Positions 2,747-35,013 of a stretch of DNA of 64,000 bases are shown here, piece by piece. The stretch lies in the IMG/VR virus record IMGVR_UViG_3300008954_000001, one strand, 5' to 3'. Below the pieces are notes generated by a model. The model made no database searches. It was not told the DNA's origin and worked only from the letters and a program-made list of their open reading frames with translations. Each line of letters opens with the position of its first letter. The stretch's first letter is position 1. Position numbers and translations under genes: made by a program. This stretch comes from a virus (Duplodnaviria; Caudoviricetes).

Positions 2747-3111
2747 CCGTACTCCGCTTCAAGTAGGAATGATTCTAAATCGTCTTGCATGGGTGCCACC
2801 CAAGACTCGGCCAACGCCTCGGCTTCTTCTTCATCCATCTGCGGCCCAAGTGACGCAAGCTCATCCAATGCGGCCAGCCTACTCAAATCCCACATTCCGT
2901 TCTTAGGTAAGTAGGTTCCAGTGGCTTTGCACTGTCGAACAAAACATAGAACGACCTGTTTAGCGAACTTCACATCAGCCCCCTCTTCTCGAAGGACTTC
3001 AATGAAGTGTTGGGAGTTCACATCGGCGGTTTGAGATCGGAGATCCTTACCAGCTAAGTCAGCTACGTAGGCTTCCCAATCTTCGATATTGTTTGGCCGT
3101 TCTTTACTCAT
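2731..3111 (-). CDS. Hypothetical protein
   Basis: Start moved to ATG 3111 (MSKERP), which overlaps the SNF2 stop. Confidence 0.6.
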   Translation of the reverse strand: MSKERPNNIEDWEAYVADLAGKDLRSQTADVNSQHFIEVLREEGADVKFAKQVVLCFVRQCKATGTYLPKNGMWDLSRLAALDELASLGPQMDEEEAEALAESWVAPMQDDLESFLLEAEYGYETD

Positions 3112-6100
3112 CCTCATCCTCCACTCCGGGGGGGCGGGATCGACCAGCGTAAGGGCTTGCTTGTAGGTCAAGCACCTTCTTATCGAGCCGCCACTTACTT
3201 GCATCCCGTTTTGAGACTGACCCCCATTCTTCGGTCAGGTCCATTTCTTGAGAGGCTTTGATGATGTCATCAAAGATGTCGGAATCCATCTTCTGGTAGA
3301 GAGCACGAATCGTATCAAGGGTTACGTCTTCGTAACCTCGCTCACCCACATTACTTGCCGACCCCGAATAACAAGAGTCAATCGTGATCTCCTGTACCTT
3401 TTGCTCTTGCCCTTGTCGCCAAGCACGAGCGGTGCGCTGCTTCATCGCTTCGCTGTTCCAGTGGTTACGGTCAAGGTGAACAACGGTATCGAAAGTCTGA
3501 AGGTTGTGTCCGTGAGAGTATTCCTTCCCCAACATGGTTGCGGTCTTGATCTCAGGGTTCTTCTTAACGATTTCTTTGAGCACAAACTGTTGCCATTGGG
3601 CCGCTGGATAGTTCTTATTCAAACCCTCGGCTCGAACCAGCTTCGTTTTAGGTGGAAGGTTCGGGTACTTGCGATACTTGCGCTTGCGGAACGGTAGTTG
3701 AAAAATGGCTCGACCACCCGCTTCAGCTACCCACCGATCAGCTTGATCTGCAAACAACAGTTCCATATCACCACGCTCAAACGGCACGGTGTAGGAATCG
3801 ATGGGGGAACCCCCTTCGTATAGTTGAATCGAATCTTTGAGGGCCAAAACATGAAGCCCCCCAATCCGAGAGGACATTCGCATCACGGAGTCGATACAGA
3901 GCTTCGGGTCATCGCTAAAGATCAAGGCTCGTGAGCCAGTAAAACCCCCGCTCTCTTCCGTAGAGATGATCTTATCCGCAAGAGTTTGCTCGCAAGTGTC
4001 CAGTTTGGGGTTCGGCATCGTTTCAGCCAACCGCTCGATTTCTTCTGGCGACCCCAATTGGTCCAAGAGAGTTTGTCCAACCTTCTTGATCCCACGAGGA
4101 TATTCGCCCCAGTTTTTCCGAAACCGCTTTGAATACTTGTACTTCTCTGGCGGGTTTCCAGAAGCGATCTCCGACAAGTCTCGCATAGCGTCAGCGGGCC
4201 TGTTCGAGAGGGTGTTCAATAGATTGACCCAAGGCCGCAATCGTAGTCCGAAAATATCTTCGGCTTTCTTGTCTCGATAAGAGTCTTGTTTGCGCCGTTC
4301 CTTGAACTTGACCGCAGCCGCTTGAAGAACGGTAGTCATTTGAGCGGTGACTGCTCGGTAGGCGGTTTCGACTTCGGGAGCCATCTCCGCTACTCGTGTT
4401 TCCACTAAGGGATCAGGGAGGTCATATTCATCGACCTTGGTTTTATCAGCATAAAAAACATTACGCTTTACCCAAGTTTTCATATCTCGTGCTGAGTTTT
4501 CATCACGAGTTACGCCAACAATGCGGCCACCAACGATATTGCAGAAGCGGTTTTTGAACCGCTGCATGGTCTTTCGGTTCTCTCGTGGTTCAACATCCCG
4601 CCCAAATAGAGGGGTGTTGTTCGAGATGGCCGCCAACACATAGGCTTCCATGGGGTTCTTTTCCATAGGGGAAGCTGTCAGACAGACTTTACGGGGGTGC
4701 CACAGTTTGAGGGCTGCTTGGGATCGCTGTGTCTTAGGGTTCTTGAGTGCGTGAGCTTCATCGAAGTAAATCTGAACGTACTCTTCGGGGTTCCACGCTT
4801 TCGGGGGCTTCTTGCTCTTAGCAGCTTGCTTCCCCACGCCCCCATATTGTTGATCCCACTCTTCTTGCTTCTGTTTCCAGTAATCATGCTGCTTCTTCAA
4901 AGGAGCGGGAATCTTCCCCGAACGAGAGGAACCTGAAAAGTTGGAGTAGGGGAGACAGTCAACTCGGTCGATCAACCCCCCGCCTTTACCTTTGATAAAG
5001 GCTTCAATCTCTTTAGGCATGTTGCCTACCAGAGACTTTGGACACACATAGAGGAACCGCCCATTGGTCTTTACTTCACGACCATCTGGCCGGGTGTAGC
5101 TGGCATCTTCTTCGAGCCAACCATCACGGACAGCTTTAACCATGCCACCAATCGCCGTGAGAGTCTTTCCTACGCCTGTTTCCAGAGCGCAAACCCCTGC
5201 CCCACCATTGGCATCAATCCACGCCAGAGCTTCCCGCTGCTTGCCCAACAACTCGAACTCTTTAGGCTCCCCATCCTTTTTGTAGGATGGGATAAAGGTG
5301 AAGTCCTCTACGATTTCTCCATTTTCATCCCGAATAGCCGTACTCAAGTTCGCCGCCTTGTATGCGGTGGTGTCCTTGGTCGCTTCTTCGGCGTTCGCCA
5401 GATCCTTGTAATACTGTTTGATCTTCTTATTTGCGGCTTCGGATAAGGCCAACCCTTCGGTTTTCTTCATCACCGTGCCGTAATCTTTGGGATCAAAGTA
5501 CACGGAGATGGCACGAGACCCTTTTACTGGGAACCATTCCATACTCGGAATACATCGCCTTGCGGGGGAAAAGGACTTGGTGCCACCAGCGCAGCAGAGT
5601 TCTTTTAGGTCGTTTCGGATATCTTTAAGAGGACCATCTCCTGGAATGGTGATCATCATCTTTTGGGTTTTGACCTTCTTCCGCTTCCCCATCACCGTGC
5701 GTGTTTTCGTTACATCCGCAACGGTGACATACGGCTCCCTTTCAGCAGGGTCGATCCGTTCGGGAACAGGGTGCGAAGCCCCACTTCGAGGATTGTAGGT
5801 ATAAGCGGTGCCTTCAATCATACGCCCATTGGCGTTGATCATGTCATCAAGGAAAATCCCCTTGTAGCGACCCCCCGTAATCACCTTCATTTCGGTGTAG
5901 GTGACGTTACCTTCGCCGTCTGTCACGGGAACGCTGATCATTTTTGTGGGGTACAGGCGGGTGAGCTTGCCTCGTTTGGCCTTATCATCCGTCAGGGAAG
6001 AGTATTCGGTTTCTCCACCAAGCTCTTCAATGGCTTCATCGTCTACTTTGCGTAGCCGCTTGAGGGGGACATTGACCTTTGTGGGTAGCTTGGACAGCTT

Positions 6101-22480: not shown

Positions 22481-22681
22481 TTATTCAGTTTCGGTTGGAG
22501 AGGGGCACCACAGTTCCAAAGCATCTTTCAAACGAATCTGACGATACTTTTTCTCCCCTTCTTCTGATCCGAAGCTCAGGTGCATGAACGATTGTACCCA
22601 ATCATTGATGGCACGAAGCTCCCGAATGTTACCCGAAAACACAAGTTGGCCGTTTTTATTAGTTCCTCGAACAAGCGACAT
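22481..22681 (-). CDS. Hypothetical protein
   Basis: GGAGG RBS, 66 aa. Confidence 0.5.
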   Translation of the reverse strand: MSLVRGTNKNGQLVFSGNIRELRAINDWVQSFMHLSFGSEEGEKKYRQIRLKDALELWCPSPTETE

Positions 22682-22748
22682 CTTCTTTCCTCCTGTTGTT
22701 ACAGCATATTACTGCCATTTCCATTAGAAGGGACATAGAAGATGCTGT

Positions 22749-23081
22749 CTAATTTTTAGACTCGCTTTTTAGGATCTTACGAGCCTCACCCGCTTCTGGG
22801 AGGCGATCTTTGACGTAGGCTTCGAGATCGAAATCGGTAATCGAAGATTTGAACTCGTTGAAGGCCCTTTTCCAATCGGGGTCAAATTCAAGCTCAGTCT
22901 TACCTTCGTGTCCGTGAATGGCTCGAACTTCACCAATCGAATCATAGATCGTGGTTGAGGGATGTTCAGATAACCATGTGACAGCGACCTTGCCGTTATC
23001 AAACACGAAACCTTGAGCCACACGTCCCGTGCCGCTAACGCCGCTTTCGTCTTCTTTCCGTACTAAATAGAACATTCTCAC
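22749..23081 (-). CDS. Hypothetical phage protein
   Basis: LVRKEDESGVSGTGRVAQG pattern. Confidence 0.6.
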   Translation of the reverse strand: MRMFYLVRKEDESGVSGTGRVAQGFVFDNGKVAVTWLSEHPSTTIYDSIGEVRAIHGHEGKTELEFDPDWKRAFNEFKSSITDFDLEAYVKDRLPEAGEARKILKSESKN

Positions 23082-23180
23082 TGGTTCCCCCAGCCCGTTA
23101 GCCGCACCTACACAGCAACCGCTGGTTGTCTTGAGTTACAGTAGGCGTACTACCTTCACGATAGATAAACAGGATATCGC

Positions 23181-23872
23181 TTACGTTGCAGGTTTGCACC
23201 CTACGACCACAGGTTCCCATGCTGGCTTTAGAGCAGTCCCCACACCACGATAAGGTAACGCTGTTTCACAAAGTTCCGTATCTTGCTCATCCGCTTCGAT
23301 TTCTGAACTGAACATGCGGCCCTTCCGATAGTCTACTTGGCCCGTAGGGGCGTAAGATTCCCCCATACGAGCCATGCGAAGGTTCTTGGGGGCCGTACCC
23401 CCTGTCAACACCAGTGCGTTGATTGCACGGGCCACGTTGTGCGATTTTGGAAAGCCGCTTCCATAGAGCCACCCTTCAAGGCGGATATCCGTGAAGCCCG
23501 CTTCGGACATGGCGGCAGCCAGACGATGATACGTTCGAGTACCAGAGAACGCCTTGATGATCCCAGATGGGCGTAGGACTCGGTAAGACTCCTGCAACCA
23601 AAGAAGGTGCCACTCTTGCTGTCGCTGAAGAACATCTTCGGACTTCCCGTAAGAAGCGGTGCCTCCGTATCGAACTTTAGATCGACCGTATGGGTTATCT
23701 ATGTCGGAGAACTTTCCGTCCCCCGGTTGGTCAGGGACGCATTTGTCCCAATCTTTCCCCATAAACTCCAAACCTAACCGTAGGGAGGATCACAAATGAT
23801 GCTCCCTACGCTTCCCTCCTTCATTTCGGACATTCGAGCGATACAATCGCCGTGTAAAAGACGAAGGATCAT
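23181..23872 (-). CDS. N4/N6 DNA MTase catalytic half, interrupted after DPPYG (5-nt gap containing TAG)
   Basis: ATG 23872 overlaps the upstream TGA; 32 codons to DPPYG, TAG at 23776-23774, then LEFMGK...WLYGSGFPKS...GTALKPAWEP in the -1 frame. Confidence 0.8.
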
Positions 23873-24726
23873 TTAACCCCTACACAAACTGGTTCCCAAC
23901 TTGGCTTGAGGGCCGTACCCCACCCGTCCCATGTTTCGGACTCTGGTGTAGCGGGAGCAGTAACAGGGATTTCTGATGGTCCTTCAGAAGTGAAGGCCAC
24001 CCCTGGAACGGCTTTGCGGTATCCGACGATCTCACGCTCGGCTTCAGCGAAGAACTCGTCCAACTCTCCATCCATTTCAGTTTCGCTCTCGCAACCCAAC
24101 ACCCGCTTCATGGTTTCCCACTTCTCAGGTGAGGGAAGGACGTTGAACCAAGGGTCGGGCTGCTTGCCGTCCTCTGGAACAGACAAGTAGTTGCAAGCCC
24201 GAAAGCCACACTCCTTATCGATCTGAGAGCGGGTCTTGCCCGAAGCGTCGAACAACTTACGAAGTTCCTCTTTCAAAACCGTGACGGACGAATTCATACG
24301 ACCGTGCTGCTTATCGATGGCCTTGCCAATGTTCATAGACTTTGGAAACCCAGAACCGTAAGTCCACGCCTCTACCCGAATGTCCTTCAAGCCAGCGTGT
24401 TCCATAGCCTCGGCCATTCGGTGAAACGTCCTTGTCCCTCCAAAGGCTTTGACGACTCCACCGGGTTTGAGGACACGGAAAACCTGACCCCAAAACTCTT
24501 GGCTAAAGGCGATCCCAGTTCCGTCCCATTCTTTACCCATGAAGCCTTTGGATTTGCTTGGCCCACTCCGTCCATAGGGAGTTTCCAAGTCCCCCGGTTG
24601 AGGGCTTCCATTACGAGAGTTCCCAACAAGGTCGTAAGGAGGGTCACACACGAAGGCGGCGACCGAGTTGTCTTCCATTTCACTGAGGCGAATAATGCAA
24701 TCGCCATGCTTCAAGTTTAAGTTCAT
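23869..24726 (-). CDS. N4/N6 DNA MTase catalytic half (intact) with an HTH-like insert
   Basis: Start ATG 24726 (ATGA overlap); HGDC, DPPY, GFMGKEWD, WTYGSGFPKS, GTALKPSWEP; no FxGxG. Confidence 0.85.
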   Translation of the reverse strand: MNLNLKHGDCIIRLSEMEDNSVAAFVCDPPYDLVGNSRNGSPQPGDLETPYGRSGPSKSKGFMGKEWDGTGIAFSQEFWGQVFRVLKPGGVVKAFGGTRTFHRMAEAMEHAGLKDIRVEAWTYGSGFPKSMNIGKAIDKQHGRMNSSVTVLKEELRKLFDASGKTRSQIDKECGFRACNYLSVPEDGKQPDPWFNVLPSPEKWETMKRVLGCESETEMDGELDEFFAEAEREIVGYRKAVPGVAFTSEGPSEIPVTAPATPESETWDGWGTALKPSWEPVCVGVK

Positions 24727-25327
24727 AGCTTTACTCCTACGATTATGGGTTCCCAAGCTGGCTTCAAGGCTGTCCCCCAACCTTCCCAAGGCTTCGCTTC
24801 GGTGGTTGTTACAGACCATTTTCCACCGGGCTTGTTTCGATATTGTCCCGCCTTCGTGCCTTGCCACTCTTCACGGTCGAACTCATGGCGGATCATTTCG
24901 GTAGTGGGATCTTCTTGGCCGCTCATGGCACGGGCATCGGCAATCTGTTTGGGGGACGACCCTCCGAACAGGACCGTGGCTTCAATGTTCTTTCCAATGT
25001 TATAGGACTTTGGAAAGCCAGAACCGTACATCCATGCCTCTATGCGTATATGTGCATATCCAGCTTGCTCCATAGCGGCTGCGAGCCTGTGGTAAGTGCG
25101 AGTACCGCTAAAGGCTTTGATATTTCCGCCAGAACGAAGAACTCGGTGGGCCTCTTGTAGCCAGCGCACATGCCAAAGTTGTTGTGAATCTAACTTGTCC
25201 CAACCTTTACCCATAAATTCGAGGCCATTCAGCCGTAGGGAGGATCACAAATAATCCCCCCTACGCAGCCCTCCTTCATCTCGGACATGCGCTGTACGCA
25301 ATCCCCAAGCCTAATGGTTAGATTCAT
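24723..25327 (-). CDS. N4/N6 DNA MTase catalytic half, interrupted after DPPYG (8-nt gap containing TGA)
   Basis: ATG 25327 overlaps the upstream TGA; 32 codons to DPPYG, TGA at 25231-25229, then GLEFMGK...GTALKPAWEP in the -1 frame. Confidence 0.8.
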
Positions 25328-25533
25328 CCTGAATACCCGTCCTTGGCCCAACCGCCACCTTTCAATGAAAAGGAGGTCTTGGAAATGAGCTTCTTTAACT
25401 TGCCTTTGCCCTTGTCCTTCTTCTTACCTTTGCAAAGGTCTTTAGAACAGGTCTTCAAAGGGTCTTCAGACATACGCTGCATCACTTCAAAGCAATGCCC
25501 GCACCTTTCACACTCGTACTCATAGATCGCCAT
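25324..25533 (-). CDS. FmdB-family zinc-ribbon protein
   Basis: MAIYEYECERCGH...TC...LISKTSFSLKGGGW. Confidence 0.9.
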   Translation of the reverse strand: MAIYEYECERCGHCFEVMQRMSEDPLKTCSKDLCKGKKKDKGKGKLKKLISKTSFSLKGGGWAKDGYSG

Positions 25534-26690
25534 TAACTGCCCATACCGAACAGATCGGACAATCCAACTGCTTCCTCTTCTTTGGTTTCCGTTGGGGCTT
25601 CCGAGTCAATCTTTGCCATACGGCCACGCCATTCAGAGGAATCCCAATACCGAACACGGGCATCGGCAATCCGAATGTAGTCTTCCTCTTTTTCGATGCC
25701 GATAAAGTCATGTCCTGTATGAAGGGCGGCGATCCCAGTTGACCCTGACCCCATAAAAGGATCAACCACAGGGCCGTTGCCCTTAGGGACAGTGTTGAGT
25801 AGGGCTTCCATGATGGCGTAGGGCTTTACGGTCGGGTGGTCATTACCAAGCCGCTTTCCATCCTTACGAAGTTTCGCACAACCCGCTTCTCGTTCCGAAC
25901 GAGAAGCCTTGGGGACATACCAAAAGCCTTCGGCATCAGTAACGAACAAGATGCTGTCCCGAATCTCGAACCCACCATCCTCTAAACGGCAAGCACCAAC
26001 ATGACCTGTGGGCATATCGTCGGGAGCGACCAAGAGAATGTGTCCTCCCGGTTTGAGGACTCGATCCATCTCTTTCGTTTGATCTTCGGTAGGTGTCCCT
26101 TCCGCAATCAAACCGTGAATGGATTGATCCTCCACCTCGGACAAGTCGTAAGCATTTACGTCCTTCATATAAAGGACACCCCCATCCCCCGTGATGTGGG
26201 ACGGGTCAATCAAGTCCGTCAAATACGACAGCAATTCGCTTGGGATAGCGTCATTATTTTCCATGTTATCCACCTCTTTGAAATATCTTGATGCCCCACC
26301 AGTATCTTCATACCCTCGAACAGTCGTGTCCCTGACATCATTTGAGTTCCATTCCACCGAAGATCCTTCAGTAGAATAAATAGGTTCCCCGGTAGGTTGC
26401 CGTAAACCCGTCGATGAAATCCCACTTTGTTCGTCTAAGGCTCCCGAACTGGTTTCGGTAAGGACCACATTTGCGGGCCACCGTCCTTCAGGATGTTGGC
26501 CTTGGGCTTCAAGGTCGTCCTTCATTCCGAAGTTGATTGACGAAGCCTCTCGGTTGTTTGACCCAATGGACAAGGTATCGGTTGTACCGATACGCACATT
26601 GTCGATGTTCAGCCCACCACACCCATGTTTCAAGGTGTTGGCGGCGACCGTCCCTATGAGGGGCTTTCTGGCTACTGTGATTCCTTTCAA
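25533..26690 (-). CDS. N4/N6 MTase-like SAM-binding protein lacking DPPY
   Basis: Likely TTG start 26690 with GGAGGTG RBS; ARKPL, GRWPANV, HPTVKP, DPFMGSGSTG; IAEGTP sits where DPPY is expected. Confidence 0.8.
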   Translation of the reverse strand: MKGITVARKPLIGTVAANTLKHGCGGLNIDNVRIGTTDTLSIGSNNREASSINFGMKDDLEAQGQHPEGRWPANVVLTETSSGALDEQSGISSTGLRQPTGEPIYSTEGSSVEWNSNDVRDTTVRGYEDTGGASRYFKEVDNMENNDAIPSELLSYLTDLIDPSHITGDGGVLYMKDVNAYDLSEVEDQSIHGLIAEGTPTEDQTKEMDRVLKPGGHILLVAPDDMPTGHVGACRLEDGGFEIRDSILFVTDAEGFWYVPKASRSEREAGCAKLRKDGKRLGNDHPTVKPYAIMEALLNTVPKGNGPVVDPFMGSGSTGIAALHTGHDFIGIEKEEDYIRIADARVRYWDSSEWRGRMAKIDSEAPTETKEEEAVGLSDLFGMGS

Positions 26691-27280
26691 GGAGACACCT
26701 CCGCAATTTGGTTGCCCCAAGAGTGCCAACCGGGGCGGTCTCTCCGTGCGAACACTTCTAAGTAAGGGCCATCTGAAACCGTCTCCACCAATTCATAGAA
26801 CGCATCGGGTTTCCGTGAATGGGCGGTTCGGTCAGCATGGACCACAGTCGGGGGCCTTCTATCTGTGGAAGGGACCATTGCTTTCCCTTTGACCCCAAAC
26901 AAAAGAAGTTCATGCTGACCCCGCATATATTGGCCTAAACCTTTTCGTTGTTTGACCCACACGGCGTTGGTTACATAACGGAACCCAAGTTCTTCCATGA
27001 GCCACAAGCCGTCCGTTAGGTAGTTGTTTGTTGCCCATAACCACAGGTGGCAATCGTCGGCGGGTCGCCAAAGATCCCCTGATTGGATTACCGCTGGCAT
27101 GTCCTTGGTCTTTACCAAGGGATAGTGTCGATCCGCACCTCGCTTAATGGTTCCCCCTCCCACTTCGGTCCATGGAGGGTCCATCATAATTGCTCGGTAT
27201 CCCGCTTGAGGTACTTCCCCAAGCGACATGATGTGCGGGGGCTTTTGAACCCCCATGGCGAACAGATCAGACAGTTCCAT
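26687..27280 (-). CDS. MT-A70-family adenine methyltransferase
   Basis: IMMDPPW, LWLWAT, GQHELLLFG, HSRKPD, LEVFAR. Confidence 0.9.
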   Translation of the reverse strand: MELSDLFAMGVQKPPHIMSLGEVPQAGYRAIMMDPPWTEVGGGTIKRGADRHYPLVKTKDMPAVIQSGDLWRPADDCHLWLWATNNYLTDGLWLMEELGFRYVTNAVWVKQRKGLGQYMRGQHELLLFGVKGKAMVPSTDRRPPTVVHADRTAHSRKPDAFYELVETVSDGPYLEVFARRDRPGWHSWGNQIAEVSP

Positions 27281-33802: not shown

Positions 33803-33888
33803 TGGTAGGGATGGGGGGACTCGAACCCCCACGAGCAAAGCTCGGCAGATTTTGAATCTACTGCGTCTACCTATTCCGCCACATCCCC
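33803..33888 (-). tRNA. tRNA-Leu(CAA)
   Basis: GGGGATGTGGCGGAATAGGTAGACGC...GTAGA-TTCAAAA-TCTGC, long V arm, GGTTCGAGTCC, encoded CCA. Confidence 0.95.
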
Positions 33889-34083
33889 TCAAATCGTATG
33901 GGTGTCGTCTTCCCAGTTGGTCAGTAAGTCCTTTGCGATCTTCCGTAGGATCGCCGCCTTACTGCGAGAAGGCTCATATCGTGCGGCATCCCGAATGACT
34001 TCACCTAATGAGGCTTCTGTTTGTAGGAGTCTTACTGAAATCATTTAGGAAAAGGCGGGGGAAACCCCATGAAATACAGGGGG

Positions 34084-34293
34084 TTAGCTGTCCCGCCGCA
34101 TAGCCTCGCACTTACCATCAGAAATCAACTTGTACGCCATGCGACCGTAGTGGCCTTGAAGGTTCCAAGCCATCCCTGTGTTGATAAGCATCTGGAAGAA
34201 CACAACGGTCTCTTCTTCCGTCATCTGACCACTCTCGTAATCTTGGAATTGCTGTGGCATCGGTTCTTGGGTGTTCTCGATCTCGGTAGACAT
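34084..34293 (-). CDS. Conserved small phage protein
   Basis: FQMLINTGMAWNLQGHYGR pattern. Confidence 0.65.
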   Translation of the reverse strand: MSTEIENTQEPMPQQFQDYESGQMTEEETVVFFQMLINTGMAWNLQGHYGRMAYKLISDGKCEAMRRDS

Positions 34294-34397
34294 TATCGCT
34301 CCTGTCTAAAGTAAAGGGTGTCGGAAACCTCACGGTTGGAGGTCAGGTGGATGATCCTCGTAACAAGCAGTGAGGCTCCGACATAGTTTAGTAGTGC

Positions 34398-34470
34398 CTG
34401 GGGCGGGTGGAGTCGAACCACCAACCTTGGGCGTAACAGGCCCCTGCGCTGCCAATTGCGCTACACCCCA
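34398..34470 (-). tRNA. tRNA-Asn(GTT), CCA not encoded
   Basis: TGGGGTG/CGCCCCA acceptor stem, loop CT-GTT-AC, GGTGG-TTCGACT-CCACC T arm, discriminator G. Confidence 0.9.
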
Positions 34471-34485
34471 AGCACAGAGAGGTCA

Positions 34486-34740
34486 TTATCGATTGCTGGA
34501 AACGAAAGCGTTTAGCTTCGTGGCCGTTTCGATAACTTCGTCAGTGGTAAAGAAGGTCTTGCGATCCTTCGCCTTGTCTTCACGAGCCATGTGAGCACCC
34601 GTTTCCAAAATGTCCTTCGCCAGATGGAGAAGGTCAAACCGCAACTCGTATGGGTTGCGACCCTTTTCGGGGAGGGGGGTGCTTGGATCGTATCCAAGAA
34701 TCTCGGCTGCGCTTGAGCCGTCAGGTGTTTGAGAAGCCAT
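34486..34740 (-). CDS. Hypothetical phage protein
   Basis: KGRNPYELRFDLLHLAKD; start ATG 34740 with GGAGG RBS. Confidence 0.6.
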   Translation of the reverse strand: MASQTPDGSSAAEILGYDPSTPLPEKGRNPYELRFDLLHLAKDILETGAHMAREDKAKDRKTFFTTDEVIETATKLNAFVSSNR

Positions 34741-34830
34741 AATGCTTCCTCCTTTGTGTGTGTTTGCCCAAATGGGCGTGTGTGTGTACGCCGTACATCT
34801 GTACGACAAAGGATTATACCGACGTGGAAG

Positions 34831-34906
34831 TGGTGGGCCGTCAGGGACTTGAACCCTGAACCTACGGATTAAAAGTCCGGTGCTCTACCTGTTGAGCTAA
34901 CGGCCC
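34831..34906 (-). tRNA. tRNA-Lys(TTT)
   Basis: 76 nt, GGGCCGT/ACGGCCC acceptor stem, loop CT-TTT-AA, CCA end. Confidence 0.95.
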
Positions 34907-34916
34907 GTGGCTGGAG

Positions 34917-35013
34917 TGGTAGGGGCGGTGGGACTCGAACCCACGACCTTGCGTTTATCAGACGCTAATACGAGGTATAAGCTCGCTGCTCTAACCAACT
35001 GAGCTACGCCCCC
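34917..35013 (-). tRNA. Atypical 97-nt tRNA-Ile(TAT) with a second, GAT-bearing anticodon-like arm
   Basis: GGGGGCG TA GCTC AGTTGGTTA GAGC A GCGAG-CTTATAC-CTCGT ATTA GCGT-CTGATAA-ACGC A AGGTC GTGGG-TTCGAGT-CCCAC CGCCCCT A CCA. Confidence 0.9.

Follow-up and report, generated by a model that had tools for sequence, protein, structure and literature searches.

The IMG/VR virus record IMGVR_UViG_3300008954_000001 (Caudoviricetes) was analysed as one stretch of 64,000 nucleotides (nt), referred to below as the window, which is part of a very large (giant) marine phage. On its minus strand lie three tandem genes related to DNA methyltransferases, and two of them, here called gene 1 and gene 2, are interrupted by a stop at the same codon of the conserved DPPYG-LEFMGK motif, with the second half of the motif continuing in another frame. 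The anatomy of the two interruptions, the RNA signals that accompany them and the way in which ribosomes may pass them are the subject of this analysis.

Gene 1 begins with an ATG (23872-23870) that overlaps the TGA of the preceding gene (ATGA), and its first reading frame (23777-23872, minus strand, as are all features of the tandem genes) runs for 32 codons, MILRLLHGDCIARMSEMKEGSVGSIICDPPYG (...EGSVGSIICDPPYG), which hold catalytic motif IV (DPPY) and end in ...SIICDPPYG. The last of these codons, a GGT for Gly32 (23779-23777) that we call the take-off codon, is followed by the stop TAG of the initial frame (23776-23774), and the last G of this stop doubles as the first base of a second GGT, the landing codon (23774-23772), 5 nt downstream of take-off. 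The junction reads TAC GGT TA GGT TTG GAG, and the same 5-nt form is present in the homologous loci L185 and L187. The second reading frame (23181-23771), which lies at -1, resumes with TTG (Leu), encodes LEFMGKDWD...EPVVVGCKPAT up to its stop and matches the phrog_67/phrog_6025 DNA methyltransferase.

The first reading frame of gene 2 (25232-25327) has its ATG (25327-25325) in an ATGA overlap as well and is also read for 32 codons (...EGCVGGIICDPPYG), ending in ...GIICDPPYG (GCVGGIICDPPYG). The recoding site (25224-25234) consists of the take-off codon GGC (25234-25232), the stop TGA (25231-25229), the dinucleotide AT and the landing codon GGC (25226-25224), which gives a distance of 8 nt; the junction, TAC GGC TGAAT GGC CTC GAA, is identical in L185. 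From the resume codon CTC the second reading frame (-1; 24723-25223) encodes LEFMGKGWD...EPIIVGVKL plus stop. In both genes the 32 codons to ...CDPPYG, the stop and the restoration of LEFMGK in the -1 frame agree base for base with an initial annotation of this DNA, which had likewise given the spacings of 5 nt and 8 nt and the codon pairs GGT-GGT and GGC-GGC correctly.

A hairpin precedes each junction, and a box resembling a Shine-Dalgarno (SD) sequence precedes each hairpin. In gene 1 the hairpin (23779-23810) has 14-nt arms with 13 pairs and one C-C mismatch, a TTTG loop and a predicted energy of -19.4 kcal/mol; its 3' arm is formed by the DPPY codons and the first G of the take-off codon, and the SD-like box AAGGAGG (23815-23821) lies 4 nt 5' of it. 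The hairpin of gene 2 (25234-25265) has 14 pairs including two G-U, again a TTTG loop, and -23.2 kcal/mol, with AAGGAGG at 25270-25276. The initial annotation had described a hairpin in both genes and the 14 pairs with two G-U in gene 2, which stands, and had passed over the C-C mismatch in gene 1 and the SD-like boxes. Its further statement that the uninterrupted middle paralogue (23869-24726) lacks the hairpin was borne out, and this gene, which carries a long in-frame insert between DPPY and GFMGKEWD (DPPYDLVGNS...GFMGK), provides an internal control. The window has about 35 strong hairpins on its two strands, and GGN and a stop follow only those of genes 1 and 2.

How general is this arrangement? 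From homologue DNA and from pattern and metagenome scans (TARA/ENA, JGI, NCBI and Logan) we gathered 22 distinct junctions, and all of them consist of a Gly codon, a stop, 2-10 nt, a second Gly codon and [LI]-x-F-M in a new frame. The stop always stands directly 3' of the take-off codon and is TGA in 17 junctions, TAG in 4 and TAA in 1; the hop would cover 8 nt in 17, 5 nt in 3, 7 nt in 1 and 13 nt in 1, leading into the +1 or the -1 frame. As take-off codon GGC is found 11 times, GGT 8 times and GGA 3 times, and as landing codon GGC 14 times, GGT 7 times and GGA once, in the combinations GGC-GGC (7), GGC-GGT (4), GGT-GGC (4), GGT-GGT (3), GGA-GGC (3) and GGT-GGA (1). The stop and, in 21 of the 22, the hairpin of the initial annotation are conserved among homologues, whereas its matched codons are not, identity of take-off and landing codon being found in only 10 of 22; the rule is rather from Gly codon to Gly codon (22/22), with GGY to GGY in 18/22. 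At the same position in 114 uninterrupted genes with DPPYG[LIVM]xF[ML], our control set, GGY accounts for only 46% of the Gly codons.

The 120 best database homologues include 103 that could be classified, and 31 of these start at MGK.WD or otherwise lack the DPPY part. Gene callers cut about one third of the family to fragments from MGK, and recognition of the recoding site would improve annotation. In a JGI metagenome scan 4 of 80 loci were interrupted; protein-seeded scans found no interrupted relative among 80 IMG/VR loci or among 80 bacterial-genome loci, and all interrupted loci come from contigs of uncultured marine origin or from a few IMG/VR contigs, the latter picked up by DNA pattern.

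The possibility of an assembly error, which the initial annotation had raised, does not hold, because Logan contigs from four runs of one study cover both window junctions with no indel and because the same junctions are seen in independent assemblies. One of the latter, the JGI assembly that contains L185, is about 92% identical to the window and has both junctions with differences at synonymous sites. The downstream frame is intact at every locus examined. Judged from these assembled contigs, among which minority variants lacking the insert may have gone unseen, the interruption is conserved and is neither an assembly error nor gene decay. Strain variants were seen at window positions 23801, 23810, 23813 and 23814 (contigs of runs X2-X4): one falls on an unpaired position of the gene 1 hairpin, one changes C-G to U-G with pairing kept, and two change Gly to Ala just upstream.

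A low ratio of non-synonymous to synonymous substitution rates (dN/dS) in the downstream frame, which the initial annotation had named as a check, was found in both genes. When the window is compared with L185, the C-terminal part of gene 2 has 29 synonymous and 8 non-synonymous differences (dN/dS 0.067), and in gene 1 the 37 codons from the resume codon on differ at 8 synonymous sites and at no non-synonymous one. In the first frame, gene 2 has 6 synonymous and 0 non-synonymous differences, and gene 1 encodes the same peptide but for 3 conservative changes, with dN/dS at or below 0.067 in both frames. On the evidence of these comparisons, both halves are under purifying selection in their own frames. 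Between its WD and WH motifs the L185 orthologue of gene 2 (L185:89-865) carries about 95 additional residues, an in-frame, Cys-rich insert (CAECGG...CYC) that the window gene is without; the L185 protein is annotated from an internal Met.

Selection also reaches into the codons between the landing site and the ATG used by gene callers. The codon after landing specifies Leu as CTT, TTA, TTG, CTG or CTC, and once Ile; it is followed by GAG or GAA (once TCG) and by TTT or TTC, the second codon positions being invariant except for the one Ser. Because the LEF codons vary synonymously, selection at the level of amino acids acts on codons 5' of that ATG. A stop within the hairpin closes the new frame a few codons upstream, and the stretch between this stop and LEF has no start codon that the junctions share; ribosomes must therefore enter the new frame from the first open reading frame.

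Taking -15 kcal/mol or stronger as the criterion for a hairpin, we find the two signals together, a hairpin (-15.5 to -27.2 kcal/mol) and an AGGAG(G) box 4 nt upstream of it, at 21 of the 22 interrupted junctions. Not one of the 114 uninterrupted genes has both signals; their mean fold is -7.0 kcal/mol, 3 reach -15 kcal/mol and 13 have an SD-like box. The sole uninterrupted gene near the interrupted pattern is L107:271-370, with a hairpin of -20.7 kcal/mol at the same place and no SD-like box. AGGA is invariant in 18/18 sequences of alignment A2 (columns 19-25), and the AGGAG(G) box is kept while the encoded residue changes between Lys, Gln and Glu. The second Pro is CCC and the Tyr is TAC in 22/22 interrupted junctions, compared with 32% and 49%, respectively, in uninterrupted genes.

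The stem itself shows compensatory double changes at three pairs: A-U to G-C or C-G (37/54), G-C to A-U (40/51) and A-U to G-C (43/48). Double changes were found in 12 cells, the covariation score was reached by 0 of 500 shuffles, and slid registers collapse; RNAalifold recovered the same helix independently. For further conserved structure 3' of the landing site, RNAalifold gave only a trivial 3-bp helix. A take-off stem-loop of the type known from gene 60 of phage T4, enclosing the take-off codon, the stop and the 5' part of the gap, is absent, the consensus fold being the 5' hairpin only, and no Rfam match was obtained in window positions 22500-26000. A role of the hairpin as a terminator was rejected, as no U tract follows it.

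Two natural controls separate the RNA from the peptide that it encodes. Locus L181 specifies the same peptide CVGSIICDPPYG with no stop, through GTG GGC ... CCC CCA TAT, and hence has no hairpin. Locus L278 is uninterrupted and syntenic with the interrupted L088 and L081, with flanks about 91% identical; it has AAGGAAG and CCG CCT TAT where L088 and L081 have AAGGAGG and CCT CCC TAC. The conserved nascent sequence ...VGS(I/V)(I/V)CDPPYG contains Pro-Pro and is equally conserved in uninterrupted genes.

We consider programmed recoding at both genes very probable, and each gene is probably decoded as one polypeptide through a short programmed bypass by peptidyl-tRNA-Gly. The central idea of the initial annotation, a very short programmed hop, is thereby the best-supported reading, strengthened by conservation, covariation and selection in the 22 junctions, and a hop is more probable than a ±1 frameshift. 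The idea in the initial annotation that the hop gates methyltransferase expression is a conjecture, as any regulatory purpose would be. According to the proposed mechanism, after 32 codons peptidyl-tRNA-Gly would sit on GGY in the P site with the stop in the A site. Instead of termination, the tRNA would release the take-off codon, the mRNA would slip, by 5 nt in gene 1 and by 8 nt in gene 2, until this tRNA re-pairs with the next Gly codon; decoding would then resume at Leu-Glu-Phe-Met-Gly-Lys and restore DPPYG-LEFMGK as in the uninterrupted homologues. At take-off the 3' arm of the hairpin would still be inside the mRNA channel of the ribosome and the 5' arm already out, and refolding of the hairpin behind the ribosome may pull the mRNA forward, with a possible contribution from an anti-SD contact just 5' of the hairpin. 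We infer this stimulation by hairpin and SD-like box with guidance from proposals for gene 60 and for phage phiHau3.

The hop is favoured because there is no slippery site, because the landing GGN is the sole site of re-pairing, and because pairs of GGY with GGY are in excess. A slip by a single base from TAC GGY finds no re-pairing in either direction (at -1 the codon would be CGG), and a slip at the Pro codons loses the essential Tyr. The next GGN is the only site where re-pairing can occur, and it always stands immediately before the resume codon, at any gap length and in either frame. GGY codons would be read by one tRNA-Gly(GCC). The middle base of the 5-nt gap varies freely between A, C and T. 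Transcriptional slippage was rejected, as there is no homopolymer run, and so was an alternative genetic code, as the frame changes.

Several observations weigh against a hop. Four junctions have unmatched third bases (GGA-GGC in 3, GGT-GGA in 1), so that one tRNA would have to re-pair with a third-position mismatch. Within the junction family the gap never holds a stop in the resume frame, and, the gap being open, the frames would allow a frameshift that adds 2-4 residues, as in DPPYG-LNG-LEF. Furthermore, the 22 junctions are related by descent, and their counts are not independent events. Finally, in L117 (1882-1980) a 13-nt hop, GGT TGAAAACCTA GGC, would lead into the +1 frame with neither hairpin nor SD-like box.

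The alternative that survives best, though we regard it as unlikely, is a programmed -1 frameshift (+1 in the 7-nt and 13-nt forms) at or near the Gly codon and stop, with the gap read as 2-4 residues (LG, LNG, LTG, SG or ENLG). The resume frame is indeed open through the gap in 22/22 junctions, inserts are tolerated at the same loop, as in the middle paralogue, and an internal SD-like box combined with a stop recalls the prfB site. However, CCT CCC TAC GGY TRR contains no slippery heptamer X XXY YYZ, and tRNA-Gly, tRNA-Tyr and tRNA-Pro cannot re-pair one base to either side without loss of the essential Tyr. The only conserved helix lies upstream, and none is found 5-9 nt downstream as at known -1 sites. 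The distance from the SD-like box to the shift codon is 36-41 nt, whereas SD sequences act at 3-14 nt in prfB and dnaX. If the gap were translated, its middle base A, C or T would give Asn, Thr or Ile, so that no amino-acid constraint would apply there, right beside strictly kept LEF codons; nor would a frameshift account for the Gly codon that always precedes the resume codon, whatever the gap or frame. In addition, a locus of a sister family (L094, described below) has a resume-frame stop within the gap.

Could the two halves instead be made separately? Termination after the 32-residue peptide and re-initiation at the ATG of FMGK would yield fragments that assemble non-covalently, or of which one alone matters. 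An ATG lies 11-17 nt past the stop in every case and is used by gene callers, and the phage already divides the enzyme into half-genes. Termination-reinitiation over such distances is known in bacteria. Sliding of 70S ribosomes is discussed in PMC11194080. Such a split gene leaves unexplained why Leu/Ile-Glu/Ser-Phe is kept through synonymous changes (five Leu codons, GAG/GAA and TTT/TTC) if this stretch is untranslated, and it accounts neither for the landing Gly codon nor for a hairpin whose end falls exactly in the take-off codon. The ATG, moreover, is the codon of the Met conserved in FMGK, and every uninterrupted gene has this Met too. We therefore think it quite improbable that the gene is split.

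That the junctions are non-functional, as pseudogenes, inverted-repeat assembly errors or tolerated footprints of mobile elements, might be suggested by the frequent changes of state on the gene tree, where interrupted and intact genes are interspersed, and by homing endonuclease genes adjoining interrupted methylase genes in other lineages, but it is largely refuted and extremely improbable given the same junctions in independent TARA/ENA, JGI, NCBI and Logan assemblies, the lack of indels in contigs across the window, dN/dS of at most 0.067 in both frames, intact downstream frames, and a covarying hairpin with SD-like box that is kept in spite of an identity of only 66-86% in the N-terminal DNA of paralogues.

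The interspersion of interrupted and intact genes on a tree of the C-terminal parts corresponds to 22 changes of state, of which well-supported branches force at least 10, and some sister pairs differ in state at very short distance. Compared with L088 and L081, L278:2990-3160 has a segment exchanged from the DPPY codons on; besides the stop insert, this uninterrupted allele is missing about 35 residues (SRQPGDPNY..NPYGRSKVRYG). Because of this replaced segment, as seen between L278 and L081, recombination moves the interruption state. Among paralogues the identity of 66-86% refers to the N-terminal 96 nt, compared with 62-74% in the C-terminal parts, and conservation is confined to the signals. 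A recently spread cassette was rejected, since the N-terminal 96 nt are little more identical than the C-terminal parts; with its N-terminal DNA at so low an identity, the cassette is old.

The same codon is the site of interruption in a second family, that of full-length Dam-like beta-class methylases (DPPYG-TTACKWD..IPFEPMW). Its junctions (L090:7984-8082, and on the minus strand L091:2731-2829, L094:3749-3847 and L098:8607-8705) have the gaps TAGT, TA, TAATTAA or TAGC and no upstream hairpin, and a landing Gly codon is missing from L098. The gap of L094 contains a resume-frame TAA just ahead of the landing GGA, which excludes a simple +1 frameshift at this locus. Directly upstream of the interrupted methylase, L094 has an HNH gene with NUMOD3 (3928-4611, minus strand) and L091 a weak HNH match (2901-3527, minus strand). 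A further variant was observed on a 402-kb contig (L274:2967-3010), where an in-frame TAA and 9 extra bases (DPPYG-TAA-LS-LSFMNKKWD) cause no frame change and no landing Gly is present, an arrangement that might be decoded by readthrough, by a 9-nt hop or by recoding of the stop; a LAGLIDADG endonuclease gene lies just upstream (L274:2043-2786, minus strand). Since the same codon has been struck independently in at least two families, in some cases beside HNH or LAGLIDADG genes, bypassed inserts may have a general role: if this is true, short inserts of this kind may let homing elements or their targets break a recognition site in an indispensable motif while the protein is kept.

What kind of enzyme is interrupted? 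For the three tandem genes of the window the match to PF01555 is limited to its N-terminal half (profile positions 3-111 of 221; 6-111 for the C-terminal parts), with scores of 19-20 bits that are below the gathering cut-off of 26.7. Catalytic motif IV, (D/N/S)PP(Y/F/W), is present as DPPY in the 32-codon first frame of both interrupted genes. The S-adenosylmethionine (AdoMet)-binding motif I (FxGxG) is absent from the polypeptides of these genes, and DPFMGSGST sits in a separate gene (25533-26729). The whole homologue family stops at ...WEPxxVGRKP, as do the three window genes at ...WEPxxVGxKP, and stand-alone N-terminal halves of 140-340 residues form a large family, with 1311 matches of comparable length listed. 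The methyltransferase relationship given in the initial annotation thus holds, with the correction, from the PF01555 match, that the genes encode stand-alone N-terminal (DPPY) halves and not complete methyltransferases.

The gene at 25533-26729 (minus strand) contains the C-terminal half of the PF01555 domain (positions 144-219) and no DPPY motif, and its product is likely the partner of the N-terminal half genes. Its first segment (GTVAANTLKHG..LNID..GRWPAN) is one normally found after ...ARKP, and its last part is the AdoMet-binding half. Its start overlaps by 43 nt with an MT-A70 gene (26687-27280, minus strand), and across 23181-27280 of the minus strand a methylase is apparently split into modules that include the three DPPY half-genes. 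A Zn_ribbon_8 gene (25324-25533, minus strand) is kept in relatives directly upstream of the interrupted gene, and the order C-half methylase, Zn-ribbon, interrupted N-half and Acb5-like gene is often common to relatives. Zn-ribbon, MT-A70, amidase, phrog_7499 and SLT-like genes surround the interrupted genes of the window within about 4 kb, and no homing endonuclease gene was found over this distance. Genes for a GroEL-like chaperonin, a Lon-like protease and an endolysin also lie in the window, together with a cluster of four tRNA genes on the minus strand (33803-35013; Leu-CAA, Asn-GTT, Lys-TTT and Ile-TAT); no tRNA-Gly or suppressor tRNA gene was found in the 64-kb window. The protein of the tandem genes was found again on a 323-kb contig.

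One close model for these junctions is T4 gene 60, to which the initial annotation had likened them: the Gly codons and the stop support the likeness, and the position of the hairpin, 5' of the take-off codon and unlike the take-off stem-loop of gene 60, does not. In both systems a phage gene has a Gly take-off codon followed directly by a stop and a downstream Gly codon on which the retained peptidyl-tRNA can land. Both have a 5' stem-loop, and mRNA pairing behind the ribosome is the proposed forward driver; pairing of the exiting mRNA has been put forward as the force behind forward bypassing (bioRxiv 10.1101/2024.12.09.627546). The homing endonuclease MobA adjoins gene 60 (bioRxiv 10.1101/2022.08.31.505936), and the patchy, mobile-like distribution of our junctions resembles this pair, with HNH directly upstream in the sister-family locus L094. 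On the other hand, the gap is 5-13 nt here and 50 nt in gene 60, no take-off stem-loop encloses the take-off codon and stop, and the main structure is wholly 5' and built from the coding sequence of the catalytic motif. The SD-like box lies upstream of the hairpin here and inside the gap in gene 60. The codons are not strictly matched, the window has no homing endonuclease within 4 kb, and the interrupted gene is unrelated and has no sequence similarity.

Two bacterial comparisons concern the trigger and the internal SD-like sequence. With the +1 frameshift of prfB (RF2) the junctions share an internal SD-like sequence, a stop in the A site, forward movement of the P-site tRNA and the potential to sense the level of release factor. 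In prfB, however, the tRNA re-pairs on an overlapping codon (CUU to UUU) with the SD sequence 3 nt away, whereas re-pairing here would be non-overlapping and the SD-like box comes near only if the 32-nt hairpin forms. In the synthetic stop-hops of +5, +6 and 9 nt made in E. coli (Weiss et al. 1987, as described in PMC5009743), a peptidyl-tRNA hops over a stop between nearby matched codons with a slow A-site codon as trigger, as proposed here, but these are artificial constructs of low efficiency without dedicated stimulators. According to the same review, short natural counterparts of gene 60 with matched codons are only presumed, and no natural in-frame stop-hop is known (PMC5009743). In the closest case described, the terminase of the Streptomyces phage phiHau3, Antonov et al. 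2023 proposed a 10-nt bypass at UUA with a 5' stem-loop and flanking SD, and confirmed it in E. coli by a junction peptide (PMC10732093). By that description phiHau3 is similar in being a phage gene with a short gap, a 5' stem-loop and a flanking SD-like sequence. Its trigger, however, is a rare, tRNA-limited UUA and not, as here in every case, a stop; the type occurs in few prophages only, the gene and the signals differ, and no covariation data are reported there.

The mitochondrial byp elements of Magnusiomyces capitatus belong to mitochondrial translation, with gaps of 27-55 nt that contain internal hairpins and with unassigned A-site codons, not stops. They resemble our junctions in their many bypassed inserts, their matched codons and their mobile-like spread, as far as they are treated in PMC10732093. 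Neither bypassing nor frameshifting in DNA methyltransferase genes turned up in full-text literature searches. We tentatively propose, with slightly more doubt than confidence, that the SD-like box, the DPPY-codon hairpin and Gly-stop-(2-10 nt)-Gly form a natural, ancient and recurrent cassette that drives an efficient stop-hop of 5-13 nt, and that this would be the first natural family of its kind; if so, its dozens of diverged members would constitute a built-in mutational series. The cassette is only about 100 nt long and hence directly testable in reporter fusions. Bypassing is known in very few systems, namely T4 gene 60 and its homologues, the yeast mitochondrial byps and one proposed Streptomyces phage case, and beside these the at least 22 diverged junctions provide a comparative set for what makes a ribosome release its codon, move forward and land.

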